Part shown: piece by piece, positions 15,591 to 57,776 of the stretch
Position numbering within the stretch: the stretch's first letter is position 1
How the letters are laid out: each line of letters opens with the position of its first letter
Assembly: GCA_013375395.1 (NCBI GenBank)
Contig: JABXJW010000001.1
Location: forward strand, 1-63,283
Direction: 5' to 3'
From: Desulfobacterales bacterium
GTDB taxonomy: Bacteria > Desulfobacterota > Desulfobacteria > Desulfobacterales > C00003060
DNA: 63,283 nt
The notes under the pieces: model-generated
Told to the model about the DNA's origin: nothing
Databases searched by the model: none
The model's input: only the letters and a program-made list of their open reading frames with translations
Position numbers and translations under genes: made by a program

Positions 15591-15620
15591 AATAACCTCA
15601 CATAAAATCGCGTAGCGATT

Positions 15621-21835: not shown

Positions 21836-24568
21836 CTAGTCTGCAACCACCGGCTCCCTGAGAATCATGCCAATGGCGTCAATAGCGCTCCTGGCGATCG
21901 CAGGATAGACTTTCCTCAAGGAGGCGATCTGTCTCAGGTTGTCGGCTGTCCTGGAAACAAGCATGGAAAGGTCTCCTTCTGCCATCCCGGCAATCTCCAG
22001 GGCCATCTCCCAGGGCTTCCCATTGGCCCATGCATAGATCGTAGCAGCGGGCCACAAGGCTATCGGCTTCACTTCAAATCCCCGCACCACCTTGCGCTCC
22101 ATGAGGGGGGTGAGCGCTTTTTTCATCTTCTCGTAGGCCGTCAGAAGCCGCTTGGGCACTGAGGATTCATCGAGCCTTGTTTCCATTTCCCGATCGTGTA
22201 CAAAGGGCGCCACCAAGGCAGCCAGCAGGGCAGGATCAGTACCAGGCAACAAGCCGGCGCGAAGCCCTTCTGCAATCATCAGCGGCTGATCGAGCCTTAG
22301 TTGGGCAGCCCAGTCGCCATCAGGGGTTAGCCTGTTGTCTTCTGTGACAAAGCCTTCTTCTTTCAAGAATTCAAGGCGCCTTACAAAGTCGTTCCACAGT
22401 CGCATGCGCACGGCATTTGCATTGTCCCACATAAAGGCGAAATCTTCAAGCACCGGCCTAAAAAACCGTTTGGACTTTCCGTGACATGTTTTGAAGTGAC
22501 GACACCGGCTGCAGATCAGCCCGTCAAGCTCCTGTTCAAGAAAAAGCGCGCGGCCCCTGAGAGGTTTCAGTTCCGAAGACTCCTTTTCTCCCAGAGGCAA
22601 AGCATCCAAGGCCCGCGGCTCCTTTGTTTCATGCACGATTCGGGCCAACAACCCCCTGATTTTGTACGGATCATCCAGGGGCGGCATGTCCAGCACACGG
22701 TCCAGAATCTGCGAAACCCTTTCCGGCCGAAACCACCTCAACATCAACCTCCCGGCGCGCGCACGCATGTTCCCTTTTACACGGCAAGCCAGCACGCCAG
22801 CCTCATTCCGCCTCACCTGCCGTTTGACCACACAGTACATCCTGCCGCGGCGATCCAAAAAGAGCCGTCCGGGTACAAGATTTGCCGCCTTGGAAAGCCT
22901 GGATTCAAGCCATTTCAGGCTGCGCCTCAAATGGGCGACCTCGCCGATCATAGCCGCCCGCTTCCTGGTCAGATCCAGCACCATCTCAGGCCCGGCACAC
23001 AGAGCTTGAGGCAGCAATGCCATCAAGCCAGAACCCGCCTGTCTGAGCTTTTGATCGAGCCCCGGCTGTTGGCGCAGCACATTGAGGTATGTTGCAAAGG
23101 ACCTGTGAAAGATCTTTTTTATCTCCTCGGGGCTGTGAGATTGAAGGAGGTTTAAGACCATAGAAAAATCGACCTTGATTTGACTCAACACATCTTCGGG
23201 CGGGGTGCTGCAAAGATTTGCAAGAAGGCGCACGTCCATGAATTTTCCGGGAATCACTATGGCAAAACCGATAAAGTCCTTTCCTCGCCTGCCGGCCCTG
23301 CCCGTCATCTGATGAAACTCGGTGGCGTTCAGCGGCACAAATTCATGGCCGTTGTATCGGTCCGAGTTCAGGAACACTACGCTTCGGGCCGGGAAGTTGA
23401 CGCCAGCAGCCACTGTGGATGTGGCAAAGACCGCATCAAGCAAGCCCTCGGTCATCAGGTGTTCGACCAGGAGTTTCCATGCAGGAAGCTGACCAGCGTG
23501 GTGAGCCGCCACTGCCGCAATTCTCAGGTGCCGCAATTGCCGGTGGTCTGCCAGGCGAGGATGCCTTTCGATCAGCCCATCAATTCTTTCGTTCAACTCC
23601 ACACTCTCTATTGCCTCCCGGCTTAAACTATCGACGCAGCGCTCAAGGGCGGCATCGCAGTCTGCCCTGGATTTGAGAAAAAATATAGCAGGAAGCAGAT
23701 CGTACTTTCTCAAGACACCCATGACCTCCCCAAAGGGGGGAAGGCGTCGCGGTGTGACAAGTAGCGGTGGATTGGGGCTGTTCAGATAGGCCCGGACCTT
23801 GCCGTCGATCCCCTTGGAATCTATGAGTGGGAGCAGCCTGCCTGAAGGGTGGAAAAACAGGGGGTAAACCGGCACAGGCCGGCCTGTTTCTTCCACCACT
23901 GCACACGTCTTTGAACGTATCGATTCCAGCCAATCTGCAATCTCGCGGGCATTCTTTACGGTAGCAGAAAGGAGCAGGAGGTGGACTCGCACAGGGAGAT
24001 AGATCATGATCTCCTCCCACACTACGCCACGATCTTCGTCTCCCAGGAAATGGGCCTCATCCAGGATGACGAGGTCTGCCGCCAGATCCATGCCCTCGTG
24101 CATGGCATCATAAAGCTGATTGCGCAGAATCTCGGTGGTCCCCACAATAATGGGAGCATCGGCGTTCTCCCTGCGGTCCCCTGTCAATATGCCCACATGT
24201 TCAGGGCCGAATTCCTCGCAGAACTCAAGGTACTTTGAATTGCTCAGGGCCTTCAAGGGCGAGGCATACCATGCGCTGCCGCCTTTTTTGTGAACACGAC
24301 GGATCGCCTCCTGGGCGATCCAGGTCTTTCCCGAACCGGTCGGGGCTGAAACCAGGCAATCCGTGTGGCGAATAGCGGCTAAGGCTTTCAGTTGGAATGG
24401 ATCTGGTCTGAAGGGCTCTTTGGGGGGGACTCCGATCCTGGCAAATACATTCTTCAGCCGGGCATCCGCGCCCGCCTTTATCCGGGGAATTTCCCTCCCG
24501 TGAGCGCTCGGCACTCGCCGGCCGGCAGGACCGCCCCGCAGCATCTTTCCGATCGAACGTTTTGGCAT
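21836..24568 (-). CDS. Ski2/HelY-like DExH RNA helicase with DSHCT-like C-terminal domain
   Basis: APTGSGKTW, DEAH, SAT, HHAG, MTGRAGRRG. C-terminal YAWANGKPW...EGDLSMLVSRTADNLRQI. The start is set at ATG 24568. The longer ORF would overlap dtd. Confidence 0.8.
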   Translation of the reverse strand: MPKRSIGKMLRGGPAGRRVPSAHGREIPRIKAGADARLKNVFARIGVPPKEPFRPDPFQLKALAAIRHTDCLVSAPTGSGKTWIAQEAIRRVHKKGGSAWYASPLKALSNSKYLEFCEEFGPEHVGILTGDRRENADAPIIVGTTEILRNQLYDAMHEGMDLAADLVILDEAHFLGDEDRGVVWEEIMIYLPVRVHLLLLSATVKNAREIADWLESIRSKTCAVVEETGRPVPVYPLFFHPSGRLLPLIDSKGIDGKVRAYLNSPNPPLLVTPRRLPPFGEVMGVLRKYDLLPAIFFLKSRADCDAALERCVDSLSREAIESVELNERIDGLIERHPRLADHRQLRHLRIAAVAAHHAGQLPAWKLLVEHLMTEGLLDAVFATSTVAAGVNFPARSVVFLNSDRYNGHEFVPLNATEFHQMTGRAGRRGKDFIGFAIVIPGKFMDVRLLANLCSTPPEDVLSQIKVDFSMVLNLLQSHSPEEIKKIFHRSFATYLNVLRQQPGLDQKLRQAGSGLMALLPQALCAGPEMVLDLTRKRAAMIGEVAHLRRSLKWLESRLSKAANLVPGRLFLDRRGRMYCVVKRQVRRNEAGVLACRVKGNMRARAGRLMLRWFRPERVSQILDRVLDMPPLDDPYKIRGLLARIVHETKEPRALDALPLGEKESSELKPLRGRALFLEQELDGLICSRCRHFKTCHGKSKRFFRPVLEDFAFMWDNANAVRMRLWNDFVRRLEFLKEEGFVTEDNRLTPDGDWAAQLRLDQPLMIAEGLRAGLLPGTDPALLAALVAPFVHDREMETRLDESSVPKRLLTAYEKMKKALTPLMERKVVRGFEVKPIALWPAATIYAWANGKPWEMALEIAGMAEGDLSMLVSRTADNLRQIASLRKVYPAIARSAIDAIGMILREPVVAD

Positions 24569-24829
24569 ATCTACAATCTGTTGACATTGTAGATATTTTT
24601 TTGTTTGATTGCAAGCTCGGATATTCCATCCAGGGCCCCAGGATCTGGACCCAAGAATCACCCTTTTACTATTGAAGAACATTGGGATAAGTGGTAGAAG
24701 ATGTCCTCGGCTCAACATCGCATGCCATGGCTCAAAGAAGGGGTTTTGTATCATTTTGGCCTTATGAAACCAATGGGTTCGATGGAGCGACTGTGTTTCC
24801 AAGGACCTAAATTGTGACGGGGGTTTCAT

Positions 24830-25270
24830 ATGCGGGCTGTTGTTCAACGGGTGAGTTCCTCCGGGGTTCGGGTCGGCGATAGAACGGTGGGGCAGATCGG
24901 CCCGGGGCTCCTCGTGCTATTGGGGATTTCGGGCTCTGACAAGGAAAAAGACGCAGACTACCTGTCGGACAAGGTCGTTCACCTGCGGGTCTTTGAAGAT
25001 GATAACGGCAAGATGAACCGCTCTCTCATTGAGACAGGCGGCGAGATAATGGTCGTTTCCCAATTTACCCTGTTGGGCAACTGCCGGAAGGGTCGGCGGC
25101 CATCCTTTGTTGAAGCAGCCCCCCCTGAGAGGGCTGAAAAGCTTTACGAATACTTTGTTGATCAGATTAGATCGAAAGGGGTGACCGTGGCCACGGGACG
25201 GTTTCAGGCAAAGATGACTGTGTCTCTGGTCAACGACGGGCCCGTCACGCTGATCCTTGAAAGCAAATAA
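24830..25270 (+). CDS. dtd: D-aminoacyl-tRNA deacylase
   Basis: 146 aa. MRAVVQRV...LLVLLGI...VSQFTL...GRRPSF. Confidence 0.9.
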
Positions 25271-37274: not shown

Positions 37275-37533
37275 GCAAAGTCTCAGAGGGGTCTCCAGCG
37301 GCCATTGTTGACCCGGATGTCGCCCGCACTTTACCCTTGCAAAATCCGGCGCCGTTGTGGTAAATGTCGAGCCTAACAGCCACAAAGCAACCCCTGCCCT
37401 GAAGGTTGGGTGATGCTTCGAACCAAGTTTTAATGCAAATATGCAAGGGGGGTATTCAGATCTTGCTGGATACCCTTTTTCTGTACGCTTTGGCGCTAAG
37501 AAGCGAATAGACGAAAAAGAAAGAGGCTTGTTT

Positions 37534-39363
37534 ATGGCACAATGGGATGAAGACAGGGGTGTCTTGGTTCACACACACTCCAAGTTCTGGCAACATCGGA
37601 TACATGAGGTCGATGAACCGAATTTGCAGCGGGATGTGTTCCCGTATGACGAGGTAGCGCGTATAGACTTTGATCTCAAGATTGTCACTCCCAACCCTGC
37701 CAGGGGGTTCTTTATCACGGACTCCACCTTCAGGGACGGGCAGCAGGCTCGCCCGCCATATACTGTTGAACAAATTGTCCATATCTTTGAGTTGCTCCAC
37801 CGCCTTGGAGGGCCCAAAGGGGTCATCCGGCAGAGTGAATTTTTCCTCTATAGCGACAAGGACAAGGAGGCAGTGGAGAGGTGCCGTGAGCTGGGACACG
37901 CCTATCCGGAGATTACCGGCTGGATTCGAGCCAACAAGAAGGACCTGGCCCTGGTTAAGGATCTGGGGCTCCGCGAGACAGGGATACTGACCTCGGTATC
38001 CGACTATCACATCTTCTACAAGTTGAATATGAAAAGGTCACAGGCAGCCGATTTCTATCTGGGGGTGGTCAAAGAGGCCCTTTCCGCTGGCATTGCACCA
38101 CGTTGCCACTTTGAAGACATCACCCGATCGGACATTTACGGGTTCTGCATACCATTTGCAATCGAACTCATGAAATTGCGGGAAGAAAGCGGCATTGACG
38201 TGAAGATACGCATGTGCGACACCCTGGGCTTCGGTCTGAGTTACCCAGGGGCCTCCTTGCCCAGGAGTGTGCCCAAGCTGGTGCGTGTTCTTATTGAGGA
38301 AGCAGGGCTGCCCGGCCGCCTTCTTGAGTGGCACGGTCATAACGATTTTCACAAGGGCTTCATTAATGCCACCACCGCATGGCTCTATGGATGCGGGGCA
38401 ATTAACGGAACGCTGCTCGGATTTGGAGAAAGGACCGGCAACACCCCGGTTGAAGGATTAATCATAGAATACATTGGTCTTACCGGAAAAACCAACGGGG
38501 TCAACACCAGGGTCATAACAGAAATTGCCGACTATTTCGAAAGTGCCCTGGAGTATCATATTCCACAAAACTATCCTTTTGTGGGAGCAGACTTCAATGC
38601 CACAAGTGCGGGCATCCATGCCGATGGCCTGATAAAGAATGAAGAGATTTACAATATCTTCGACACAAGGAAGATGCTGGATCGGCCTGTTGATGTGGTA
38701 GTAACCGACAAATCCGGCGCAGCCGGTATCGCCCACTGGATAAACACCCATCTGGATTTGGCCGAAGGTGAAAAGGCAGGCAAAACTCATCCCGGTATAA
38801 TAAAGATCCACAAGGCCGTACAGGAACAGTACAAACAGGGACGAGTCACTTCCATGTCCAAGGAGGAGATGTCACACCTGGCCCACAAGTATCTGCCGGA
38901 ATACTTTGTCTCTACCTTTGACAAATTGAAGACCGGAGCCTATGATCTGGCTGCCCATCTGGTGGAAAGGCTGATACAGTTGCCTGAAATACGCTCCATG
39001 GGCCCGGCCAAACAGGAGCCCATCCTGGAAGCCGTACTGGAAAGGCATCCTTATGTTCAGTTCATCTACATCACGGACAAGGAGGGCTGCCGCACCACCA
39101 AGAACATTACTGACATCGTTGACAAGGCGAAATATAAGGGTGCAGTCATAGGTGAAGACCTCTCCGACCGTGACTGGTTCATCAGTCCGGTAAAGGACGG
39201 CAAGGTCCATGTTACTAATTTTTACATTTCAAAATACAGTAGATATCTGTGCATTACCGTATCGGGCCCCATACACGACGAGCAGGATGAAATCGCAGGG
39301 GTGCTGGGCGTTGATATAAGATTCGAAAACCTCATGAAAATGGAAAAAAATGGTGAGCTTTAA
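37534..39363 (+). CDS. homocitrate / Re-citrate synthase-family (HMGL-like) enzyme with a C-terminal Cache/PDC-like domain
   Basis: ITDSTFRDGQQ, EFFLYS, PRCHFEDITRSD, EWHGHNDFH, GFGERTGN. The C-terminal roughly 170 aa contains DLSDRDWF...ITVSGPI...GVLGVDI. Confidence 0.65.
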   Translation: MAQWDEDRGVLVHTHSKFWQHRIHEVDEPNLQRDVFPYDEVARIDFDLKIVTPNPARGFFITDSTFRDGQQARPPYTVEQIVHIFELLHRLGGPKGVIRQSEFFLYSDKDKEAVERCRELGHAYPEITGWIRANKKDLALVKDLGLRETGILTSVSDYHIFYKLNMKRSQAADFYLGVVKEALSAGIAPRCHFEDITRSDIYGFCIPFAIELMKLREESGIDVKIRMCDTLGFGLSYPGASLPRSVPKLVRVLIEEAGLPGRLLEWHGHNDFHKGFINATTAWLYGCGAINGTLLGFGERTGNTPVEGLIIEYIGLTGKTNGVNTRVITEIADYFESALEYHIPQNYPFVGADFNATSAGIHADGLIKNEEIYNIFDTRKMLDRPVDVVVTDKSGAAGIAHWINTHLDLAEGEKAGKTHPGIIKIHKAVQEQYKQGRVTSMSKEEMSHLAHKYLPEYFVSTFDKLKTGAYDLAAHLVERLIQLPEIRSMGPAKQEPILEAVLERHPYVQFIYITDKEGCRTTKNITDIVDKAKYKGAVIGEDLSDRDWFISPVKDGKVHVTNFYISKYSRYLCITVSGPIHDEQDEIAGVLGVDIRFENLMKMEKNGEL

Positions 39364-39367
39364 AGAC

Positions 39368-39823
39368 ATGAATACTTTTGAGCTAACGGTCGGAGGCAAA
39401 GCTTATAAGGTAGACGTCGAGAAGTTCGACGGCAAGCGGGCCCTGGTCAAAGTAGACGGCAAGCCTTATGAGATTGACGTCAAAAAGGCCGCAGGGGCTG
39501 CCGTGCCGGGGACTCCTGGACCAATGCCTCCTACGCCTGAGATACAATGGCAGGCTCCGTCGGCGCCCGAGCCCCCTCTGGCGCCCGTCGCCTCGGTCCC
39601 TTCGGGCGGTCAGGTCATTGCACCCATGCCGGGCCTGGTATTGGAGGTCATGGTTTCTGTTGGCGATAGCGTGGCAGCCGGCACACCAGTAGTTAAGATC
39701 GAGGCCATGAAAATGGAAAATGAGATCCCTGCACCTGTAGACGGCGCCGTTAAGGAGATTCTGGTCAAGGTGGGCGATAGCGTGTCAACCGACGATATCC
39801 TCTTGGTGATAGATCAAGGATAG
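39368..39823 (+). CDS. biotin carboxyl carrier (biotinyl-domain) protein
   Basis: C-terminal EAMKMENEI biotinylation motif and a Pro/Ala linker. Confidence 0.8.
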
Positions 39824-39858
39824 GCCGGGTCGTTATACGAAAAGTGGAGAGACGATTC

Positions 39859-41409
39859 ATGACGAACGAAGATAAGATTCAAACATTGCTTGAAAAACAT
39901 GCCGAGGCCGAACTCGGTGGTGGTCAGGATCGGATCGATACCCAGCACAAAAAGGGGAAGCTGACGGCGCGGGAACGAATTCATCAGCTTGTCGACAAAG
40001 ACAGTTTCGAAGAGATGGACAAGTTTGTCCTCCACCAATCCACAGATTTCGGCATGGACAAAAAGAGGTTTCCGGGTGACGGGGTCGTAACCGGATACGG
40101 CCGCATCAATGGCCGCCTGGTCTATGTCTTTGCCCAAGACTTCACCATCTTGGGAGGATCTTTAAGCCTTGCTGTAAGTGAGAAGATCTGCAAGGTGATG
40201 GACCTTGCGCGCAAAAACGGAGCCCCGCTCATCGGCCTGAACGATTCAGGAGGCGCTCGCATCCAGGAAGGGGTCTCCAGCCTGGCCGGATACGGCAACA
40301 TATTCATGAGAAACGTCCTTTCCAGCGGCGTTATCCCACAAATTTCAGCCATTATGGGACCGTGTGCCGGCGGGGCGGTCTATTCCCCCGCCCTGACCGA
40401 TTTTGTCTTCATGGTAGAAAATACCAGCTACATGTTTATCACGGGTCCCCAGGTGATCAAGGCCGTGACTCACGAGGAGGTTACCCCTGAAAAGCTGGGA
40501 GGCGCCTTGACCCACAACGCTACGAGCGGGGTCGCCCATTTTAGCGGAAAAGACGGCCCGACTGTGCTGGCCATGATTCGTGAGCTTTTGAGCTTCCTGC
40601 CTCAGAACTGGCGAGAGCTCCCCCCGGATGTTGAACCTACAGATGATCCTGACCGAACCGATATGGGGCTGCGAGAAATCGTTCCGAAAAACCCCAGGCA
40701 ACCCTATAACATGCGCACGATTATCGAGTCCTCGGTTGACAACCATTATTTCTTTGAGGTGCAGGCCAGGTATGCACCCAACATCATTATCGGTTTTGCC
40801 CGCCTGAACGGGAGGACCGTGGGAGTGGTGGCAAACCAACCCTCATTCTTTGCGGGGTGCCTCGATATCAACGCATCCATCAAGGGCGCCAGATTTGTTC
40901 GATTCTGCGATTGTTTCAACGTTCCACTCATCACTTTCTGCGATGTGCCCGGGTTTCTCCCCGGCACGGCTCAGGAATTTGGGGGAATCATAAAGCACGG
41001 TGCAAAGCTTATCTATGCATACTGCGAAGCCGTGGTGCCAAAGATTACCGTTATCACGCGCAAGGCATACGGTGGGGCATACATAGTTATGTCGAGCAAG
41101 CACCTGTGGGGAGACATCAATTTTGCTTACCCCTCGGCAGAGATAGCCGTGATGGGGCCGGAAGGGGCTGTGAACATCGTCTTTAAAAGGGAGATCGGTG
41201 CTGCCGAAGATCCGGCAAAAAAGGAAGCCGAGATGATCGAAGAGTACCGCAGAACTTTTGCCAGTCCGTATCGCGCGGCAGAAAGAGGCTTCATCGATGA
41301 GATTATCCTGCCGGAGCAGACGCGCCCCAAGTTGATCAGGGCACTGGAGTCCCTTGGAAACAAGCGAGACCGCATGCCTGCGAAAAAACACGACAATTTG
41401 CCTTTGTGA
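39859..41409 (+). CDS. acyl-CoA carboxyltransferase (PccB / methylmalonyl-CoA decarboxylase alpha / 12S type)
   Basis: About 516 aa. [25 protein letters not shown]...GCLD. GGAGAG lies upstream of ATG 39859. Confidence 0.85.
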
Positions 41410-48436: not shown

Positions 48437-49321
48437 TCAAAGTCTTACGGCCCTATAGAGATCTCTTGCATGATAAGAACTCCGCACAAACGGCGCACTG
48501 GCAACTTCTGAAAATCCCATTTCAAGAGCTGTATCCTTCCAGTTGTCAAATTCTTCCGGGCGAATAAATCGCTCAACCCGTAAGTGCTCCCTTGTGGGCT
48601 GAAGATATTGACCAAGAGTCAGGATGCGGCAACCGGCATCAAGAAGATCTTGCAGCGTTTGTTTGAGTTCTTCTGCAAGTTCTCCAAGGCCGAGCATAAT
48701 GCCTGATTTCGCTGGGATGGCACGATCGTACTGTGCGGCTCGCTTTAGCAGTTCGAGTGAGCGACGGTAGTCGGCCTCTGGCCGAACCAACGGATAAATA
48801 CGCAGGACGGTTTCAATGTTATGGTTCAAAACATCCGGACGGGCCGCCATGACTGTGTGAAGCGAATCTGTGTCGCCCTGAAAATCGGGTATCAAGACCT
48901 CCACAAGCGCATCGGGGATCCTTTTGCGGATCTCTTTAATTGTTTTTGCAAAATGTGCGGCGCCACCGTCGGCAAGATCGTCGCGGGTAACAGAGGTAAT
49001 GACTACATAGCTCAACTGCATCCTTTGCGCAGCTTCGGCCACCCTGGCCGGTTCTCCGGGATCGGGCGGGCCCTGGGGCCCGTGTTCCACCGCGCAGAAA
49101 CGGCAATTGCGCGTGCATGAGGGGCCCATAATCAGAAAGGTTGAAGTCTGTTTGGAAAAACACTCCCAGATATTGGGACATTTTGCTTCCTGGCACACGG
49201 TGTGAAGCCTGCTTTTGTTCAGCAGCCCCCTCACTTTTTCGCATGCAGGCCCCGCCGGGAGACTCCGCTTCAGCCAGCGTGGTTTTCGTGTGTGCATTTT
49301 CGAATTCTGTTGCTCAATCAT
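48437..49321 (-). CDS. lipA: lipoyl synthase
   Basis: CPNIWEC, CTRNCRFC, SGIMLGLGE. Confidence 0.9.
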   Translation of the reverse strand: MIEQQNSKMHTRKPRWLKRSLPAGPACEKVRGLLNKSRLHTVCQEAKCPNIWECFSKQTSTFLIMGPSCTRNCRFCAVEHGPQGPPDPGEPARVAEAAQRMQLSYVVITSVTRDDLADGGAAHFAKTIKEIRKRIPDALVEVLIPDFQGDTDSLHTVMAARPDVLNHNIETVLRIYPLVRPEADYRRSLELLKRAAQYDRAIPAKSGIMLGLGELAEELKQTLQDLLDAGCRILTLGQYLQPTREHLRVERFIRPEEFDNWKDTALEMGFSEVASAPFVRSSYHARDLYRAVRL

Positions 49322-49412: not shown

Positions 49413-50114
49413 TCAGCTTTTCAAATGACCCTGCAATTCTGCCAGGCTTGTCATGACAAGCTCAACCCCGAAAAGCGCCTCCACATGCCGTTTTACGCTG
49501 TTGCGTACTTGATCCATTGATACTTTATGTGAAAGCTCCTGGGCCATGGACGTCGTGCCGGTATCCTGAAGACCGCAGGGGTTTATCCAGCCGAAAGGCT
49601 CCAGCGAGAGATTGACGTTGAATGCCATGCCGTGGAAGGAAATCCCATGGCGAACAGCTATGCCGACGCTGCCCAATTTATTATTGCCTACCCATATCCC
49701 CCTGTTGGCAGAATTCCTCTCAGCCTTGATCCCCCAGTCTGAAGCAGTTCGAAGCATGACTTCTTCGAGATTTTCAACATAATCGGTCACTGTCTGCCTG
49801 GGAGAGTGAAGATCGATTATGGGATACATAATGAGCTGGCCGGGCCCGTGAAAAGTAATGTTTCCCCCCCGTTGCACCTGAATCACCCCGATGCCTGCTT
49901 TTGCCAGAAAACCCCTCGACACCCTCAGGTTGTCCAGCCCGCCCCTGTTGCCGATGGTAAAAACCGGCGGGTGCTCCAACAATAAGACAACATTTGTGTC
50001 AATGCTTCTGTCTTTTCTTGCATCCACAATGCTGACCTGAAGATCCCACGCCTCCCTGTACTCTGTGGCAGGAAGCTCAACGCAAAGCCATCTTTTGTCA
50101 AATCGCGCGAGCAT
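49413..50114 (-). CDS. lipB: octanoyl/lipoyl transferase
   Basis: RGGNITFHGPGQL and GNNKLGSVGI. Confidence 0.85.
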   Translation of the reverse strand: MLARFDKRWLCVELPATEYREAWDLQVSIVDARKDRSIDTNVVLLLEHPPVFTIGNRGGLDNLRVSRGFLAKAGIGVIQVQRGGNITFHGPGQLIMYPIIDLHSPRQTVTDYVENLEEVMLRTASDWGIKAERNSANRGIWVGNNKLGSVGIAVRHGISFHGMAFNVNLSLEPFGWINPCGLQDTGTTSMAQELSHKVSMDQVRNSVKRHVEALFGVELVMTSLAELQGHLKS

Positions 50115-50241: not shown

Positions 50242-51660
50242 TCAAGTAGACGGCAAGAAAACCTTTTTGCATTTTTTTGGAGGGAGCCGGAGTCTCTTGA
50301 GGCCGATCTCTGCGACCTGCGAGATAGGATCATACATCTGTGAGACAGGCGGACTGTAGGAAAGTTCGGCGTCCACAAGGTCGTAAAGCGTCATGCCGCC
50401 ATGCACGGCAAGGGCAAAGACGTTGATTCTCCAGCCGGCCCCTTCTTTTCCCACAGCCTGTGCGCCCAGGATCTTGCCGTCCTTTGCATCGACGATGACC
50501 CTAAGATTTATCTCTTTTGCATCGGGCATGTAATGTGGCTTTGTGTCTCGCTTGGTAGATACTGCCTTTGCATCATAACCCAGGCTCTTTGCAGTCTGTA
50601 GAGAATATCCGGTCGAGGCGATTTCCAGGCCACCGATGAACGCAACAAAGGTATTCAGCGCCCCCGGATAAAAGGTGTTTCCTCCGGCAGCATTTATTCC
50701 TGCCGTCATCCCTTGCCGATAGGCTGATGTGGCAAGCTGCATCGTAGCAGGAGTCTCATCTATGCGGGAATAGGTTTGGACAAGATCTCCAACAGCATAG
50801 ACATTTTCAACGGATGTTTCCATCCTGTTGTTCACCACGACCAGGCCTTTTTCAGTTTTCGCACCAACGATGTCGGCCAGCTTCGTGTTCCCGCTCACCC
50901 CTGCGGCCATGACGACTATGTCGCAGCCGATGGTCTCCCCGGCGATCTCCACAGATTCCACTCTCTGGGCACCGTTGATCCGGTCTATGCCTTTTCCGAA
51001 AAGAACCCTTATCCCCAGTTTTTCCAAATGCTCAACTACAATCTTTCCCATCTCCGGGTCCAGGTTGCGGGGAAACGGGTCCGGGGTCCTCTTGGTGACT
51101 GCGACATCGAACCCCAGTCTCTTTAGTGCCACAGCTACCTCAAGACCCACAGCGCCTCCGCCCACAACTACCGCACTCTTTTTCTTCGATGATCTTGCGG
51201 CCTTAAGAAGGGCATTGCTGTTTTCTATGTTCGATACAAAATGGACACCTTTCCCCAAAAGCTCCTTTGCGCCTGGGAGCGGCAGATTGACGGGGGATGC
51301 ACCGGTTGCAAGTATGAGCGAATCGTATCTGATCTCCTTTTCTTCTGAAGTGGCAAGGTCTGCAGCCTTGACTGTCTTTTTCTTGCCGTCAACAGAGACA
51401 ACTTCATGATGAAGGAGCTTGGTAAGCTTGTCTCCTATTTCAGGCACATCGTACTTTAGCTCCTCAAAGTCTTTGATTACCCCCTCGATGACAAAGGGAA
51501 GTCCGCAAGGGGAGAACTGATCAAAGTCCCTCTTTTCAATAATTGTTACACGGCATTTCCGGTTAAAGCCAAGCGCGCTCTTTGAGGCATAAAGCCCACC
51601 CACGCCGAGCCCGACGATTACTATTTCTAAAGGGGTGTTCCTGGTTGCGGCTTCGTTCAT
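50242..51660 (-). CDS. Nox/CoA-disulfide-reductase-type FAD-dependent pyridine nucleotide-disulfide oxidoreductase
   Basis: 472 aa. GLGVGG, single redox Cys in FSPCGLPF, and a second Rossmann fold VVGGGAVGLE. No CxxxxC disulfide of Lpd type. Confidence 0.75.
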   Translation of the reverse strand: MNEAATRNTPLEIVIVGLGVGGLYASKSALGFNRKCRVTIIEKRDFDQFSPCGLPFVIEGVIKDFEELKYDVPEIGDKLTKLLHHEVVSVDGKKKTVKAADLATSEEKEIRYDSLILATGASPVNLPLPGAKELLGKGVHFVSNIENSNALLKAARSSKKKSAVVVGGGAVGLEVAVALKRLGFDVAVTKRTPDPFPRNLDPEMGKIVVEHLEKLGIRVLFGKGIDRINGAQRVESVEIAGETIGCDIVVMAAGVSGNTKLADIVGAKTEKGLVVVNNRMETSVENVYAVGDLVQTYSRIDETPATMQLATSAYRQGMTAGINAAGGNTFYPGALNTFVAFIGGLEIASTGYSLQTAKSLGYDAKAVSTKRDTKPHYMPDAKEINLRVIVDAKDGKILGAQAVGKEGAGWRINVFALAVHGGMTLYDLVDAELSYSPPVSQMYDPISQVAEIGLKRLRLPPKKCKKVFLPST

Positions 51661-51714: not shown

Positions 51715-53172
51715 TTATCCCGCCAAACATGGCTTCCTGGCAGCGGTTACCTCATCGAGTCTTTTTACTTTGCAGTTTTTTGGCGCCCCGTGGAGCAAGT
51801 CCGCACTTTGTCCGGCCTCACGTGCGATGGCCTTGAATGCCTCAATAAACTGATCAATATTCTCCTTGGACTCTGTCTCGGTCGGCTCCACCATTATGGC
51901 GCCGTGTACTACCAGAGGAAAATAGATGGTGGGCGGATGAAATCCGTAATCCATGAGGCGCTTGGCCATATCAAGGGTTGTGACATTATCGGCGGCCTGA
52001 TCTTTATCTGAAAAGACGCATTCGTGCATGCAAGGCCTGTCATAGGGAAGATGCAATGTCCCTTTTAGCTTCTCTTTGACATAGTTTGCATTCAATACGG
52101 CAAGCTGGCTTGCCTTCTTCAAATTCTCAGGCCCCATACTGCATATATAACTGTATGCCTTTATCATCACCCCAAAACTTCCGTGAAAGGCTTGCAGTTT
52201 GCCTATCGATTCAGGATAGTTTTCCGAAAGCGCGTATTTGCCGTTTTCCTCAACCACCCGCGGAACAGGAAGAAACGGTTCAAGATGCTTGTTGACACAC
52301 ACAGGACCGGAGCCGGGCCCTCCTCCCCCGTGCGGCGTTGAAAAGGTCTTGTGCAGGTTCAGTTGCATCACGTCAACCCCGGTCTCGCCCATTTTTACAA
52401 TACCCATAACCGCATTGACGTTTGCGCCGTCACAATAGACCAGCCCACCTTTGGAATGGACGATTTCGGCTATTTCCCTGATATTTTCTTCAAAAAGGCC
52501 GAGCGTGTTTGGGTTGGTCACCATGATTCCTGCCGTGTCTTCGTCCATGAGCTCGGCAACGGCCTCAGGGGAAAGCATCCCCTGCTCGTTAGATGTCACA
52601 GGTACGGGCCGGTAGCCGAACAGGGCTGCACTGGCAGGGTTTGTACCGTGCGCAGTATCAGGCACTATGATCTTTGAACGTTGCGACCCCTTGCTTTTGT
52701 GGTATGCGTGAATGAGAAGCATCCCGCAAAGCTCCCCGTGGGCCCCTGCCGCAGGCTGAAGGGTGATCGCGTCCATTCCGGTGATCTCTGCAAGATATTG
52801 CTCAAGCTCGAACATCATCCTGAGCGCTCCCTGGCACAGATCAGCCGGAAGCAGGGGATGTGCTCCGGTAAAGCCAGGAAGGCTTGCCTGTTTTTCGTTG
52901 GTCTTCGGATTGTACTTCATGGTGCATGAGCCCAACGGGTACATGCCTGTATCCACCCCGAAATTCCACTGGGAAAGCCTTGTGTAGTGGCGGACTATGT
53001 CAACCTCGCTCAAATCCGGAAAGTCAGGGCCTTCGCCGGTAAGCTCCCGGTCAAGAGGGCGTGGTTCAACGTCACGTCTGGGAAGTGAAAATGCACACCT
53101 TCCCTTTTTCCCTTTTTCCCAAAGGAGCGGTTCATTAAGCATCAGACCTGTGGCGCCCAAAGGTTCTTTCAT
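51715..53172 (-). CDS. gcvPB: glycine dehydrogenase (decarboxylating) subunit 2
   Basis: PLGSCTMKYN and NLHKTFSTPHGGGGPG. ATG 53172 overlaps the gcvPA TGA as ATGA. Confidence 0.9.
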   Translation of the reverse strand: MKEPLGATGLMLNEPLLWEKGKKGRCAFSLPRRDVEPRPLDRELTGEGPDFPDLSEVDIVRHYTRLSQWNFGVDTGMYPLGSCTMKYNPKTNEKQASLPGFTGAHPLLPADLCQGALRMMFELEQYLAEITGMDAITLQPAAGAHGELCGMLLIHAYHKSKGSQRSKIIVPDTAHGTNPASAALFGYRPVPVTSNEQGMLSPEAVAELMDEDTAGIMVTNPNTLGLFEENIREIAEIVHSKGGLVYCDGANVNAVMGIVKMGETGVDVMQLNLHKTFSTPHGGGGPGSGPVCVNKHLEPFLPVPRVVEENGKYALSENYPESIGKLQAFHGSFGVMIKAYSYICSMGPENLKKASQLAVLNANYVKEKLKGTLHLPYDRPCMHECVFSDKDQAADNVTTLDMAKRLMDYGFHPPTIYFPLVVHGAIMVEPTETESKENIDQFIEAFKAIAREAGQSADLLHGAPKNCKVKRLDEVTAARKPCLAG

Positions 53173-54500
53173 GACTTGACCTCCCTGACCAGCTTGTCCA
53201 TATCTTCCTTGGACATGACCTCCGTCACACATAAGAGACAGTGGTTGGCAAGCTCAGGATAGTAGGAAGCCAAGGGCAGACCTGCTACTATCTTTTTCTC
53301 AAGTAAACGCTTGTATGTGGCCTTAAAGCCTTCGGGGAATTCCACCACGAATTCGTTGAATGTGGGCGCGCCAAATGGAATCTTGAATCCAGCCTTCTTG
53401 AGTTCGGATTTAAGGTACTCGGCCTTGTCATGGTTGAGACCGGCAAGCTCCCGTATGCCGGCGCCCCCGACAGAGGCCATATACATTGCAGCCGCCAGGG
53501 CACATAGGCTGTTGTTGGTGCAGATATTGGAAGTCGCTTTTTGCCTGCGAATATGCTGCTCGCGGGTTGCAAGCGTCAGGACAAAGCCCCTTTTTCCGTC
53601 CAGATCCTTGGTTTGGCCTACCAGGCGGCCGGGCAGGCTGCGCATATGCTTCTTTCTGCTTGCAAGCACCCCGAGCGCCGGTCCTCCGAACGAACAGGGG
53701 ATGCCGAGGCTCTGGCCTTCTCCGCATACAATGTCTGCGCCTTGACTGCCGGGGGGGTTCAGGAGCCCGTAAGAAAGGGCTTCCGTAAAGGAAGCTACAA
53801 AAAGGGCCTGTCTGTCATGAGCCTTTTCCCCTGCTGCCTGGAGGTTCTCAATGCATCCGAAAAAATTGGGCGACTGAATTGCAACGGCTGCAAGATCGTC
53901 CATGCCATCGGTTGCGGCAAGATCTGTCAGGCCGTTTTCAAGATAGCCGAGTTCCACAACCTCATAGCTGGTGGGCTTAAAATAGGTTCGAACCACTTGA
54001 CGATACAGGGGATGAATCAGGCTTGAAACAGCGACTCTTCTTCGTCTTGTCACGCGAATTGCCATAAGGAGTGATTCGGCTAGGGCCGTGGCGCCATCGT
54101 AGTGCGATGCGGTTGCCACTTCCATGCCGACAAGCCGGGCGGCAAGCGTCTGATACTCATAAATCGCCTGAAGCGTCCCCTGGCTCATTTCCGGCTGATA
54201 GGGAGTGTATGATGTTACAAACTCAGAACGGCCCAAAAGGTAAGACACGGAGGCGGGAATGAAATGTTCATAGCTTCCTGCCCCAATGAAAACTTTGTAC
54301 TCAGGAGAGACGGCCATTGTGTTGGAAAAGGCGGCCATACGGTCATTTAGTTCCCACTCGGTCAACTGCTCCGGCAGATTCAGATCTCCCTTGAAACGGC
54401 AATCCTCGGGGACGGTGGCAAAAAGATCATCCAGGTCGGCAACACCCACAACCTGAAGCATTGAGGCAATATCTTCACTGGTATGAGGCAAGTAAAGCAT
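53169..54500 (-). CDS. gcvPA: glycine dehydrogenase (decarboxylating) subunit 1
   Basis: 443 aa. Motifs TYTPYQPEMSQGTLQ and SFGGP. Confidence 0.9.
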   Translation of the reverse strand: MLYLPHTSEDIASMLQVVGVADLDDLFATVPEDCRFKGDLNLPEQLTEWELNDRMAAFSNTMAVSPEYKVFIGAGSYEHFIPASVSYLLGRSEFVTSYTPYQPEMSQGTLQAIYEYQTLAARLVGMEVATASHYDGATALAESLLMAIRVTRRRRVAVSSLIHPLYRQVVRTYFKPTSYEVVELGYLENGLTDLAATDGMDDLAAVAIQSPNFFGCIENLQAAGEKAHDRQALFVASFTEALSYGLLNPPGSQGADIVCGEGQSLGIPCSFGGPALGVLASRKKHMRSLPGRLVGQTKDLDGKRGFVLTLATREQHIRRQKATSNICTNNSLCALAAAMYMASVGGAGIRELAGLNHDKAEYLKSELKKAGFKIPFGAPTFNEFVVEFPEGFKATYKRLLEKKIVAGLPLASYYPELANHCLLCVTEVMSKEDMDKLVREVKS

Positions 54501-54905
54501 CTACTCCGCTCCTTTCAGCTTTTCCAGGTAATCTTTGTTAGTCATGAGGGCGTCCAGCTCAGACGGATCATTGAGCTTGACCTCAACGAACCATCCATCG
54601 CCGTATGGGCTTTTGTTCACCAGCTCAGGCGATTCTTCAAGGGCCGTGTTTACGGCTGTAATTTCTCCGCCCACCGGCAGGTAGCATTCGGAAACGGCCT
54701 TGACAGATTCTACGGTTGCAAATTCTTCCCCTTTCTTAAAGGTGTCACCCACCTGTGGTAGTTCCACGAAAACAATGTCTCCGAGTTGGTCCTGGGCATA
54801 GTCGTCAATGCCGGTCCTTATCTTGTCGCCTTCAAGCCTGGCCCACTCGTGATCCTCTGCATAGCGGATATCATCGGGCAGATCGAGTTCGCTGATTTTC
54901 TTCAT
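54501..54905 (-). CDS. gcvH: glycine cleavage system H protein
   Basis: 134 aa. Lipoyl-lysine motif TVESVKAVSE. Confidence 0.9.
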   Translation of the reverse strand: MKKISELDLPDDIRYAEDHEWARLEGDKIRTGIDDYAQDQLGDIVFVELPQVGDTFKKGEEFATVESVKAVSECYLPVGGEITAVNTALEESPELVNKSPYGDGWFVEVKLNDPSELDALMTNKDYLEKLKGAE

Positions 54906-55023: not shown

Positions 55024-55052
55024 TTGACGAAAACCCTCGAGCCTGCTAATAT
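55024..55052 (+). promoter_or_regulatory. sigma70-type promoter for the gcvT fusion gene
   Basis: TTGACG (55024-55029), 17 nt, then TAATAT (55047-55052). Confidence 0.55.
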
Positions 55053-55062
55053 GCTCTCATTC

Positions 55063-55112
55063 ATGATGAGACCTCCTGTTGATGGGACTTCTTGACAGGA
55101 GGATTCTTTTTT
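55063..55112 (+). promoter_or_regulatory. leader: 10-codon uORF plus CCUCCUGU/ACAGGAGG hairpin plus U-tract
   Basis: uORF ATGATGAGACCTCCTGTTGATGGGACTTCTTGA (MMRPPVDGTS). Stem 55072-55079 pairs with 55095-55102, followed by attctttttt. Confidence 0.35.
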
Positions 55113-55124
55113 ATGGGGTGACAT

Positions 55125-57776
55125 ATGAGCAAGCTTCAACGAACGATTTTCTACGACCAACACGTGGCCATGGGCGCCAAGATAGTCGAATTCGGCGGCT
55201 GGGAGATGCCGATTTTCTACCCCACCGGCATTGTGGAGGAGCATCTGGCCACCCGCAAGGGGGCTGGGCTTTTTGACGTCTCACACATGGGCCGGTTCAT
55301 CCTCCGTGGCGCCGGGGCAATAAAGTTTCTCCAGCACGTCTTGAGCAACAACGCACAGGCCCTCGATAGAAGAGAGACAGGCGCTCAGTACACGTTCATC
55401 ACCAACAAATCCGGCGGCGCCGTAGACGATGCATATCTCTATCAATTCATAGACGATGAATATCTGCTGGTAGTCAACGCCGCCAACCGCGACAAAGACT
55501 GGAATCACCTCCAGACACTTGTGAAGGACTTTGGTGATGCTGAACTGATCGACCGTACCAAAGAAATAGCCATGATTTCGCTCCAGGGGCCCAAATCGCG
55601 CGACCTGCTGGAAGAGATAATAGGGTCCGGCCGGCTCCCTGAGCCGATTCGAAACGCCGTGAGCATGGTGACGATCTCGAACGCCGAGGTGAAGTTGGCC
55701 CGCACCGGCTACACGGGGGAGCCGTTGTGTTTTGAGCTTTTTGCCGACCGAGGCGACGGTCCGATGCTGTGGGACCTGATCCTCGCCAAGGGCGCCACAC
55801 CCATCGGCCTTGGCGCAAGGGATACGCTCCGCCTGGAGGCAGGGCTGCCCCTTTACGGTCATGAGCTGGGTGAGGACCCGGAGGGCAAGGAAGTTCCCAT
55901 CATGGCCTGTCCTCTGGCAAAGTTTGCCGTGAGTTTTTCGCCGCTAAAAGGAAATTTTCTAGGCCGTGCAGCGCTGACCACACAGCACGAAGCGTTCAAG
56001 AAGTTTGTTTCCCGCGACTACTCTCTTATCCATAACCTGCCTCGCATGATCAGGCCGATCGCCGTGGCAGGGCGTGGCATTGCCCGAGAAGGAGCCAGGG
56101 TGTTTAAGGACGACAAGCACGTCGGCTACGTCACCAGCGGCACCATGGTCCCGTTTTGGGTCTTTGAGGGTAAAGGGCTCGACTCCGTGCAGACCGACCG
56201 GCACCAGCTAAGATCGATCTGCCTTGGATACATCGACAGCGACCTCATTGAAGACGATAGGCTAACCATAGAGATTCGCGGCAAGGCGGTTGATGCCGTG
56301 GTGGTGCCTTTCCACATGCGCACCGAGGCCCCGCCGTATGCCCGCCCGATCGTGTTCGATCACGAAATGCCGGAAGAAGAACCGCCGACAGGTGACGTGC
56401 CGGCCAAAGTCCGCAGGCTCCTGGAAAAGACCGTGGAAAACACGCTGTGGCGACAACGCGAGTGCATCAACCTGATTCCCTCGGAAATGACGTTTTCCCC
56501 AATGACCCGGCTGATTTCGGTGATGGACCCTGCTTTCCGCTATGCCGAGCACAAAGAGTCCATGGCATTCTACGACACCGAAATCTTCTATTACCAGGGA
56601 ACCGGTTTCATTGGCGAAGTGGAGCGGATGCTGGAAAAAGAGATGCGAAAATTCCTCGGCTGCGAGAATGTCGAAACGCGCCTCCTCAGCGGACAGATGG
56701 CCAATACCGCCGTTTTCAGCGCAATGGTCGACTACATCAATCGCGCAGACCGCAAGTGCGAGCCTCGGCGAATTCGCCAAGTGATGAACAACCATATCGG
56801 AAAGGGCGGCCACCTCAGTGCCCAACCAATGGGCGCGCTAAAAGACTATGTGGCCCGGAGCCCGCGCACGGAGCGCCCTGCCGTGGTAAATTTCCCGGTG
56901 TTGGCGGAAAACCCTTACAAGATAGACGTTCCGGCCACGCTGGAATTGATCGCGGAATACCGGCCCGAGCTGATCATTTTCGGCAAGAGCATGGTCCTGC
57001 ACAAGGAGCCTGTGGCCGAGATCCGCAACTTTGTCGACGCCCAGAAGATCGATGCTGTGGTGATGTACGACATGGCCCACGTGCTGGGGCTCATCGGTCC
57101 GCACTTCCAGAAGCCCTTTGACGAAGGGGCCGATATAGTCACCGGGTCGACGCACAAGACCTTCTTCGGCACACAGCGCGGTGTGGTGGGAAACCGTTTC
57201 AAGGAGCACGAGGAGCGCTACGCGCTTTGGGAGGCCCTGGTTCGCCGCACCTTTCCAGGCTCGGTCTCAAACCATCACCTTGGCACATTGCTGGGACTGC
57301 TAATGGCTACCTACGAGATGAATCACTTCAAAGACGAATACCAGTCCCAGGTCATCGCCAATGCGAAGGTATTCGCCCCGGCCCTGGCAGACTGCGGGCT
57401 CGATGTGGCAGGAGATCCCGCCATCGATTTTACCGAAACCCACCAGGTGGTGGTGCGCGTGGGCTACGGCCGCGGGCCGGAAATAGCCGGCAGGCTAGAG
57501 GCCAACAACATCATCTGCAACTACCAGGCGGCAACCGACGAAGAAAGCTTTACCGCCTCCGGCGCCCTGCGCATGGGGGTTTCGGAGATGACCCGCTTCG
57601 GCATGGAACAAGACGACTTCCGCACACTGGCCGGGCTGATCCATGACGTGGTGGCAAACAATGCCGGTGTCGCAGATCAGGTCAAGGCGCTCCGGCAACG
57701 ATTTTGCGAACTGCGGTTCTGCTTCCGCGGCAACGAATATGCCGATCTGCTGCAAAAACTGCACGAGCTTCTGTAG
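55125..57776 (+). CDS. gcvT: fusion protein: aminomethyltransferase (GcvT) N-terminal half plus divergent serine hydroxymethyltransferase-like C-terminal half
   Basis: 883 aa. N-terminal GWEMPIFY, GLFDVSHMGRF, RTGYTGE. C-terminal LIPSEMT, GGHLS, DMAHVLGLI, GSTHKTFFGTQRG (PLP-Lys context), FPG. Confidence 0.8.
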   Translation: MSKLQRTIFYDQHVAMGAKIVEFGGWEMPIFYPTGIVEEHLATRKGAGLFDVSHMGRFILRGAGAIKFLQHVLSNNAQALDRRETGAQYTFITNKSGGAVDDAYLYQFIDDEYLLVVNAANRDKDWNHLQTLVKDFGDAELIDRTKEIAMISLQGPKSRDLLEEIIGSGRLPEPIRNAVSMVTISNAEVKLARTGYTGEPLCFELFADRGDGPMLWDLILAKGATPIGLGARDTLRLEAGLPLYGHELGEDPEGKEVPIMACPLAKFAVSFSPLKGNFLGRAALTTQHEAFKKFVSRDYSLIHNLPRMIRPIAVAGRGIAREGARVFKDDKHVGYVTSGTMVPFWVFEGKGLDSVQTDRHQLRSICLGYIDSDLIEDDRLTIEIRGKAVDAVVVPFHMRTEAPPYARPIVFDHEMPEEEPPTGDVPAKVRRLLEKTVENTLWRQRECINLIPSEMTFSPMTRLISVMDPAFRYAEHKESMAFYDTEIFYYQGTGFIGEVERMLEKEMRKFLGCENVETRLLSGQMANTAVFSAMVDYINRADRKCEPRRIRQVMNNHIGKGGHLSAQPMGALKDYVARSPRTERPAVVNFPVLAENPYKIDVPATLELIAEYRPELIIFGKSMVLHKEPVAEIRNFVDAQKIDAVVMYDMAHVLGLIGPHFQKPFDEGADIVTGSTHKTFFGTQRGVVGNRFKEHEERYALWEALVRRTFPGSVSNHHLGTLLGLLMATYEMNHFKDEYQSQVIANAKVFAPALADCGLDVAGDPAIDFTETHQVVVRVGYGRGPEIAGRLEANNIICNYQAATDEESFTASGALRMGVSEMTRFGMEQDDFRTLAGLIHDVVANNAGVADQVKALRQRFCELRFCFRGNEYADLLQKLHELL

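Follow-up and report, generated by a model that had tools for sequence, protein, structure and literature searches.

In plant mitochondria, where photorespiration takes place, and in the reductive glycine pathway, glycine and serine are interconverted by the net reaction 2 Gly <-> Ser + CO2 + NH3 + 2[H], with glycine cleavage and serine hydroxymethyltransferase (SHMT) drawing on a shared pool of tetrahydrofolate (THF). Plants couple the two activities through separate, very abundant proteins, and synthetic biologists are trying to optimise this coupling in the reductive glycine pathway. The intermediate that is exchanged, 5,10-methylene-THF (CH2-THF), is also central to the metabolism of Wood-Ljungdahl organisms such as those considered here. 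In the glycine cleavage system, the folate-dependent step belongs to the T-protein (aminomethyltransferase, GcvT), and canonical T-proteins are monomers of 360-400 residues. When GcvT-type domains are found fused to other catalytic domains they are usually formaldehyde traps, as in sarcosine oxidase, dimethylglycine oxidase/dehydrogenase and trimethylamine N-oxide (TMAO) demethylase. Here we describe a gene from a Desulfobacterales bacterium (assembly GCA_013375395.1, contig JABXJW010000001.1, of which positions 1 to 63,283 were analysed and are referred to as the window) that encodes a T-protein fused to an SHMT-like protein. The pair of activities would be the same as in the plant glycine decarboxylase complex with SHMT and in the reductive glycine pathway, but these use separate proteins whereas here both reside in one polypeptide.

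A T-protein and an SHMT-like protein in one reading frame

The fusion gene (Table 1) was translated to a single terminal stop without internal stops. Searches of the 883-residue protein against Pfam gave three matches, all far beyond chance: GCV_T (PF01571) at residues 9-251 (E 5e-72, 242.7 bits), GCV_T_C (PF08669) at residues 363-395 (E 4e-10, 39.8 bits) and SHMT (PF00464) at residues 435-839 (E 1.9e-32, 112.8 bits against a gathering score of 27), the last spanning profile positions 10-399 of 399. The motifs that an earlier note on this DNA had quoted were all located, namely GWEMPIFY (25-32), FDVSHMGRF (50-58) and RTGYTGE (193-199) in the T half, and LIPSEMT (450-456), GGHLS (561-565), DMAHVLGLI (649-657) and FPG (710-712) in the SHMT half. 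The motif of the pyridoxal phosphate (PLP) lysine, GSTHKTFFGTQRG, lies at residues 674-686, with the lysine at position 678.

The same gene was then looked for elsewhere by scanning one genome per species, which returned 75 loci. At 59 loci covering the whole gene, independently assembled and from other genomes, both halves fell within one tblastn high-scoring segment pair, in one frame and with no stop; wherever the gene was incomplete, the contig ended within it or a 100-N scaffold gap interrupted it. The earlier note had named a missed stop or frameshift around 56300-56450 as a way in which the join might be false, and the comparison of these loci speaks against it. A protein search found more than 120 clusters at 78-83% identity, each of about 883 residues and with all three Pfam domains. 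One apparently extended fusion reading frame of 1537 residues, in a closed metagenome-assembled genome (MAG; L031, CP070769.1), was rejected as an artefact in which a 100-N gap (10448-10547) joins the next gene.

Nei-Gojobori estimates of dN/dS from independent close pairs lay at 0.03-0.27 in the T half and at 0.04-0.24 in the SHMT half, which indicates that purifying selection acts on both. Pairwise distances in one half tracked those in the other among 72 fusions (correlation r = 0.97), and the SHMT half was slightly more conserved than the T half. These comparisons show a genuine and old fusion whose halves are inherited together. An AlphaFold2 model of the whole protein had a mean pLDDT of 88.8 and a pTM of 0.86; the high pTM hints, indirectly, at a defined interface between the halves. 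No solved chain spanning both halves was found with Foldseek, the highest query-normalised TM being 0.43.

The T half carries the features of a genuine GcvT

The T half passed the cut-offs of two curated families, scoring 309 against 300 for NF001567 (the NCBIfam GcvT model) and 254.9 against 235.85 for TIGR00528. Residues 1-400 aligned with the T-proteins of Thermotoga maritima, Bacillus subtilis, Escherichia coli and Pyrococcus horikoshii (E 1e-57 to 1e-46), and the predicted structure superposed on 1woo with a Foldseek TMt of 0.88 and on 1v5v with 0.83. The alignment to 3a8i pairs Asp97, Asn113 and Arg223, which in E. coli serve catalysis and the folate site, with D101/D102, N118 and R232 of the T half; the latter were invariant in 26 diverse fusions, archaeal ones included, down to 34% identity. 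With its family scores, catalytic residues, three-domain fold and linkage to gcvH and gcvP, the T half qualifies by sequence as a GcvT. What it shares with the stand-alone enzymes of T. maritima (1woo) and E. coli (3a8i) is this fold, the Asp/Asn/Arg set, the curated scores and the gene linkage. In contrast to them it has two family-specific insertions in its C-terminal part, of about 15 and 20 residues (approximately 291-306 and 344-362 in alignments to 1woo, 1yx2 and 3a8i), and it is followed by a linker of about 30 residues and 450 residues of SHMT. The linker is among the least conserved stretches of the protein (mean conservation 0.53 compared to 0.64-0.73 in the domains) and was modelled with low confidence (pLDDT 53-66 at residues 401-420).

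The SHMT half is of the archaeal type and retains its catalytic residues

The best match of the SHMT half in the PDB was the SHMT of Methanocaldococcus jannaschii (MjSHMT; 4uqv/4bhd), with E 3e-45 and about 30% identity, some 24 orders of magnitude better than the matches to bacterial or eukaryotic SHMTs. The predicted structure superposed on 4bhd with a Foldseek TMt of 0.88. Residues were mapped by alignment to E. coli GlyA, whose sequence was checked to be identical to 1dfo. The predicted Schiff-base lysine, Lys678 (E. coli K229), was present in 71 of the 72 fusions. The PLP site was kept in 70-72 of 72 and comprises, besides K678, D649 (D200, pairing with the pyridine N1) and H563 (H126, stacking); the phosphate loop S522-G523 (S97-G98), H652 (H203), H677 (H228) and the equivalents of S175 and G125 were conserved to the same extent. 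The substrate side was no less constant, with R816 (R363, carboxylate), S453 (S35), Y490 (Y65) and the catalytic E475 (E57) kept in 71-72 of 72. Residues that reach across the subunit boundary, Y473 (Y55), E475 and Y490, were conserved in 70-72 of 72 fusions. At the pterin site Y489 (Tyr64), I558 (Leu121), G562 (Gly125) and L564 (Leu127) were kept, but Asn347 is Gln801 in 70 of 72 fusions.

Compared to E. coli GlyA (1dfo), the equivalents of the PLP lysine, Asp200, His126, Arg363, Glu57 and Tyr65 are present and the same chemistry would be expected, but the identity is only about 25%, the loops are of the archaeal type and a T-protein is attached. Asn37 is replaced by M455, and seven residues are inserted after YAEH. 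With MjSHMT the half shares every PLP and substrate residue as well as the signatures THKTFFG.Q and FPG..SNHH; unlike archaeal SHMTs, the fusion clade is separate and has LIPSE(M/Q)T in place of LIASEN, the insertion after YAEH and a glutamine at E. coli position 347. The SHMT half is therefore best described, from these alignments, as a divergent subfamily with its catalytic residues intact. The earlier note had called it SHMT-like and divergent, which holds, although its archaeal type had gone unnoticed; the wider claim, that an entire T-protein and a divergent SHMT share one reading frame, is borne out by the domain scores, the active-site residues, the purifying selection and the structural matches.

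The fusion is widespread and its clade includes stand-alone proteins

Full-length fusions were found in many MAGs of Desulfobacterales/Desulfobacteraceae, including SEEP-SRB2 and Eth-SRB1 bins. Others came from Actinomycetes (Thermoleophilia among them), from one Planctomycetales MAG and from MAGs that bear the labels Fibrobacterota and Pseudomonadota. With the SHMT half as the query, an exhaustive profile-free search reached fusion clusters down to 34% identity (873-961 residues). The deepest-branching of these, annotated as 'hypothetical protein', came from Candidatus Woesearchaeota archaeon MAGs and were 945-961 residues long with 34-37% identity. Judged by its occurrence in several bacterial phyla and in Woesearchaeota, the fusion is widespread and ancient. 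A few genes upstream of the Woesearchaeota fusions lies a VKOR-family gene, at a distance of 3.1 kb in L077 and 1.5 kb in L079, and the L077 contig also carries a SufB gene (15474-17339) with a LAGLIDADG homing-endonuclease (intein-like) insertion.

In a neighbour-joining tree of SHMTs, built on distances derived from p-distances, all fusions and eight stand-alone proteins formed one clade (bootstrap 100) that was sister to the archaeal-type SHMTs. Three of the four verified stand-alone genes of this clade are directly downstream of rpiB (L071 1497-3404, L073 7530-9437 and L074 5903-7794), and the one in L074 is followed by purD and purE. Their products are 49-55% identical to the SHMT half encoded in the window. 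The order rpiB-glyA, as in B. subtilis, is the classical position of glyA in Firmicutes. That stand-alone members hold this position argues that the fusion-type clade includes working, housekeeping, THF-using SHMTs. In a number of MAGs, among them ones of Clostridia and Aminicenantes, they appear to take the place of the canonical glyA.

The fusion gene stands beside the genes of the glycine cleavage system

In the window, the fusion gene is arranged head-to-head with gcvH-gcvPA-gcvPB-lpd-lipB-lipA (Table 1). The earlier note had placed the protein in glycine-serine metabolism, and the location beside the genes for the H-protein, both P-protein subunits, a candidate L-protein and the lipoylation enzymes lends support to this role. 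The listed reading frame of gcvPB overlaps gcvPA by 64 nt; translation of gcvPB probably starts some 19 codons further down than the listed ATG, since alignments with orthologues begin at residue 20. At most related loci gcvH adjoins the fusion gene, and the gcv neighbourhood recurs at most Desulfobacterales loci. A co-directional arrangement, fusion-gcvH-gcvPA-gcvPB, was seen in L038, L042 and L056, and the same order with a gap in L041. A tblastn search detected no second gcvT or glyA in the 63-kb window, and no canonical glyA was present in about 0.9 Mb of flanks of related loci.

Proposed function and alternatives

We consider it probable, from the sequence comparisons and gene context above, that the protein is a bifunctional T-protein/SHMT enzyme with the overall reaction 2 Gly + NAD+ + H2O <-> Ser + CO2 + NH4+ + NADH. 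The T half would belong to the system encoded by the neighbouring gcv genes and transfer aminomethyl from the H-protein's lipoyl arm to THF or back, with NH3 set free or taken up and CH2-THF formed or consumed. The SHMT half would interconvert glycine plus CH2-THF and serine plus THF in a PLP-dependent reaction. Dimerisation is likely to involve the SHMT halves, since an SHMT active site draws Tyr55', Glu57' and Tyr65' from the partner subunit and these are conserved here; the dimer would then display two T-protein modules on which the H-protein could dock. The carrier could be recycled between the halves, THF from one being the substrate of the other, and it would presumably be THF rather than tetrahydromethanopterin (H4MPT), since the fusion clade is mostly bacterial. 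Both activities, the dimerisation, the local recycling or channelling of folate, THF as the carrier and the physiological direction are what we infer for this enzyme. The clearest rationale for a fusion is offered by the oxidative direction, in which the SHMT half would use what the T half makes, while the T half would use the THF that the SHMT half sets free. True channelling between the halves is doubtful.

Several observations weigh against a bifunctional enzyme of this kind. The SHMT half scored 234.9 against the cut-off of 335 for NF000586, the NCBIfam model of canonical SHMT, and so missed it. The pterin contact Asn347 is a glutamine (Gln801) in 70 of the 72 fusions, and, likewise at or beside the pterin site, E. 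coli R235 is replaced by Q684 and GGP by S715-N716-H717, the latter two changes both being common to archaeal SHMTs. The closest characterised relative, MjSHMT, uses H4MPT and not THF (PMC3697235). Neither gcvH nor gcvP was found within about 8 kb of the fusion gene at many loci, among them the Thermoleophilia loci and several Desulfobacterales loci, nor within 8-10 kb at the two Woesearchaeota loci. The fused T half may not always be the sole T-protein, as the Desulfobacteraceae MAG at L010 (5368-7274) has two T-like proteins: a gene for a 431-residue GcvT-like protein, 33% identical to the fused T half, lies directly upstream of gcvH in its gcv operon, and a gene for an AsnC/Lrp-like regulator separates it from the fusion gene. 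A single lineage of fusions, P0135 (889 residues), has lost the PLP lysine to histidine and carries the further replacements H126 to L, E57 to T and H203 to Q; it is kept full-length in two assemblies (L081 3132-5801 and L082 760-3429), and its SHMT half is possibly a pseudo-enzyme. Finally, in the reductive direction both halves would consume CH2-THF, so channelling could not be the rationale there and the fusion would ensure only co-expression and co-localisation, with no hand-over.

A bolder version of the bifunctional enzyme, which we regard as rather unlikely, is an ancient self-contained glycine-serine machine in which a single folate, bound and probably polyglutamylated, would travel back and forth from T site to SHMT site of the same dimer, so that 2 Gly <-> Ser + CO2 + NH3 could proceed without release of CH2-THF into the one-carbon pool. 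In the genome-reduced Woesearchaeota this architecture might even lack the need for P- and H-protein and act as an SHMT with a built-in one-carbon trap.

Among the different functions that could be assigned to the protein, the formaldehyde trap is improbable but fares best. The SHMT-like half would cleave serine by a pterin-independent retro-aldol reaction and the T-like half would capture the formaldehyde as CH2-THF, with no need for the H-protein. This would agree with the usual role of fused GcvT-type domains, with the glutamine at the pterin-contacting position 347, with the Woesearchaeota fusions that have no gcvH or gcvP nearby and with a weak NCBIfam similarity of the T half to the soxA and Tdm models. 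Membership in either family was rejected, the score being 91.7 against a cut-off of 1164 for sarcosine oxidase alpha (TIGR01372, soxA) and 116.4 against 1100 for TMAO demethylase (NF053776, Tdm), and the partner domain here is an SHMT. Sarcosine oxidase alpha, dimethylglycine oxidase/dehydrogenase and Tdm likewise join a folate-binding T-like module to a one-carbon enzyme; in those proteins, however, the module is a diverged formaldehyde or iminium trap without need for the H-protein, whereas the fusion has a bona fide GcvT linked to gcvH and gcvP and a PLP enzyme as its partner. The T half scores above both the equivalog and the subfamily cut-off for GcvT and, at most loci, the fusion adjoins gcvH/gcvP as the only gcvT of the cluster. 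The folate contacts E57, Y64, G125 and L127 (E. coli numbering) are conserved, and the stand-alone members of the clade at the glyA position must load the pterin themselves because they have no T domain.

A still smaller probability goes to the C-terminal half acting in vivo not as an SHMT but on a different beta-hydroxy amino acid (threonine or allo-threonine, for example), as an aldolase or transaldolase that would supply glycine to the cleavage system. Folate-independent threonine aldolase side activities are reported for SHMTs (PMC5958214), the C-terminal domain is divergent, and the next PDB match after MjSHMT was the L-threonine transaldolase 7k34 (E 2e-28). This match, however, is confined to residues 179-454 of the half and falls 17 orders of magnitude short of that to MjSHMT, and membership in the fluorothreonine transaldolase family (TIGR04506) was rejected at 135.3 against a cut-off of 650. 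The conserved Glu57 and folate-site residues and the clade members at the glyA locus also speak for an SHMT, and a threonine-type enzyme would offer no rationale for a folate-dependent fusion partner.

It is very improbable that the SHMT-like half serves as a non-catalytic scaffold for dimers of the T-protein, or as a regulatory sensor of glycine or serine. Lineage P0135, with a degenerate active site that is nonetheless maintained in a full-length protein, counts in favour of such a role, and judging from the sequences a scaffold fits this lineage only; in the other fusions the lysine and essentially all catalytic residues are kept, and purifying selection on the SHMT half matches or exceeds that on the T half. 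An artefact in which an error of sequencing or assembly took away a stop or frameshift and so joined adjacent gcvT and glyA genes has no observation in its favour and is effectively refuted, as the same continuous frame occurs in independent assemblies from different studies and phyla, the length of about 883 residues recurs among the protein clusters, and the linker is translated and partly conserved (APPYxRP).

Novelty and significance

We found no description of a covalent T-protein/SHMT fusion in the full-text literature, in which subscription journals were incompletely covered. Both parts are members of known families, and it is probably their natural combination that is undescribed. If both halves of the bifunctional enzyme are active, glycine cleavage or synthesis would be stoichiometrically hard-wired to the formation of serine, and the protein would be a compact and tractable test case for folate channelling. 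Should the self-contained shuttle prove true, it would give a natural precedent for engineered scaffolds of the glycine cleavage system and SHMT in the design of the reductive glycine pathway.

The fusion also defines a bacterial clade of archaeal-type SHMTs and exposes a gap in annotation. In their source records the fusions are named 'aminomethyltransferase', 'GcvT' or 'hypothetical protein', and the SHMT half is ignored; public records do not carry the SHMT name because this half belongs to a divergent subfamily below the NF000586 cut-off. Hundreds of database entries named only 'GcvT' or 'hypothetical protein' are concerned. Metabolic reconstructions may wrongly score SHMT as missing, or overlook its coupling to glycine cleavage, in Desulfobacterales, among them SEEP-SRB2 and Eth-SRB1, the partners of anaerobic methanotrophic archaea (ANME), in Thermoleophilia and in Woesearchaeota (DPANN).

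Upstream region and other features of the window

Table 1. Positions of the fusion gene, its parts and nearby features in the window, and of two related genes on other contigs
Feature	Position	Strand	Description or basis
Whole fusion gene	55125..57776	+	883 codons plus stop; ATG start
T-protein (aminomethyltransferase) half, residues 1-400	55125..56324	+	PF01571, PF08669, NCBIfam, PDB alignments
Linker, residues 401-432 (EAPPYARPIVFDHEMPEEEPPTGDVPAKVRRL)	56325..56420	+	Pro/Glu-rich
SHMT-like half, residues 433-883	56421..57773	+	Archaeal-type fold-type-I PLP enzyme; PF00464, PDB match, Foldseek
Lys678 codon, predicted PLP Schiff-base lysine	57156..57158	+	Alignment to E. coli GlyA
Sigma-70-like promoter (putative), TTGACG-17 nt-TAATAT with TG extension	55024..55052	+	Number of such sites in the region not above chance
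Terminator-like hairpin in the leader (CCUCCUGUUGA / UUGACAGGAGG) with a U-run after it	55072..55112	+	-23.8 kcal/mol, z = -3.0
gcvH (lipoyl carrier H-protein), divergent	54501..54905	-	PF01597, E 1.4e-42
gcvPA (P-protein subunit 1)	53169..54500	-	PF02347, E 2.6e-125
gcvPB (P-protein subunit 2)	51715..53232	-	PF21478, PF02347
Dihydrolipoamide-dehydrogenase-like flavoprotein, L-protein candidate (lpd)	50242..51660	-	Pyr_redox_2, Pyr_redox_dim
lipB-like octanoyl/lipoyl transferase	49413-50114	-	PF21948
lipA lipoyl synthase	48437-49321	-	PF04055 with PF16881
Woesearchaeota fusion, L077	4502-7339		
Woesearchaeota fusion, L079	2147-5032		

A sigma-70-like promoter can be drawn upstream of the fusion gene, in a region where the number of such sites was not above chance. 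A promoter-like element of the form TTGACGAAA-N(~11)-(C/T)TGATA, which in the window falls at 55024-55052, recurs upstream of the fusion orthologue at many Desulfobacterales loci (L005, L007, L011, L013, L015, L018, L027, L030, L036, L040, L057, L062, L063, L065, L066, L070, L075 and L076), and the conserved GACGAAA, which extends beyond the -35 hexamer, could be the site of a regulator. The leader contains a terminator-like hairpin that is possibly an attenuator. Its stem and U-run were also seen in L010 and L034 and in variant form in L028, L008 and L023; most orthologous loci are without it. An AGGAGG in the 3' arm of the hairpin precedes a mini open reading frame of two codons (ATG GGG TGA, 55113-55121), which ends 3 nt before the ATG of the fusion gene. 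No Rfam family, the glycine riboswitch included, was detected in the window at the gathering threshold or in the leader at E <= 10.

By their annotation, the other genes of the window are unrelated housekeeping genes, and none is a further one-carbon or serine-catabolic gene that might hint at the physiological direction. An HMGL-like (transcarboxylase 5S-type) protein is encoded at 37441-39363 in a biotin-carrier/carboxyltransferase cluster (37441-41409), and its C-terminal part (residues 521-633) matched the PDC/dCache sensor domains of proteins like methyl-accepting chemotaxis proteins, an unusual combination. On the minus strand at 21836-24847, a DEAD/DEAH helicase of 1003 residues with a C-terminal DSHCT (Ski2/Mtr4-type) domain is encoded next to a gene for a dynamin-family GTPase (20231-21697).

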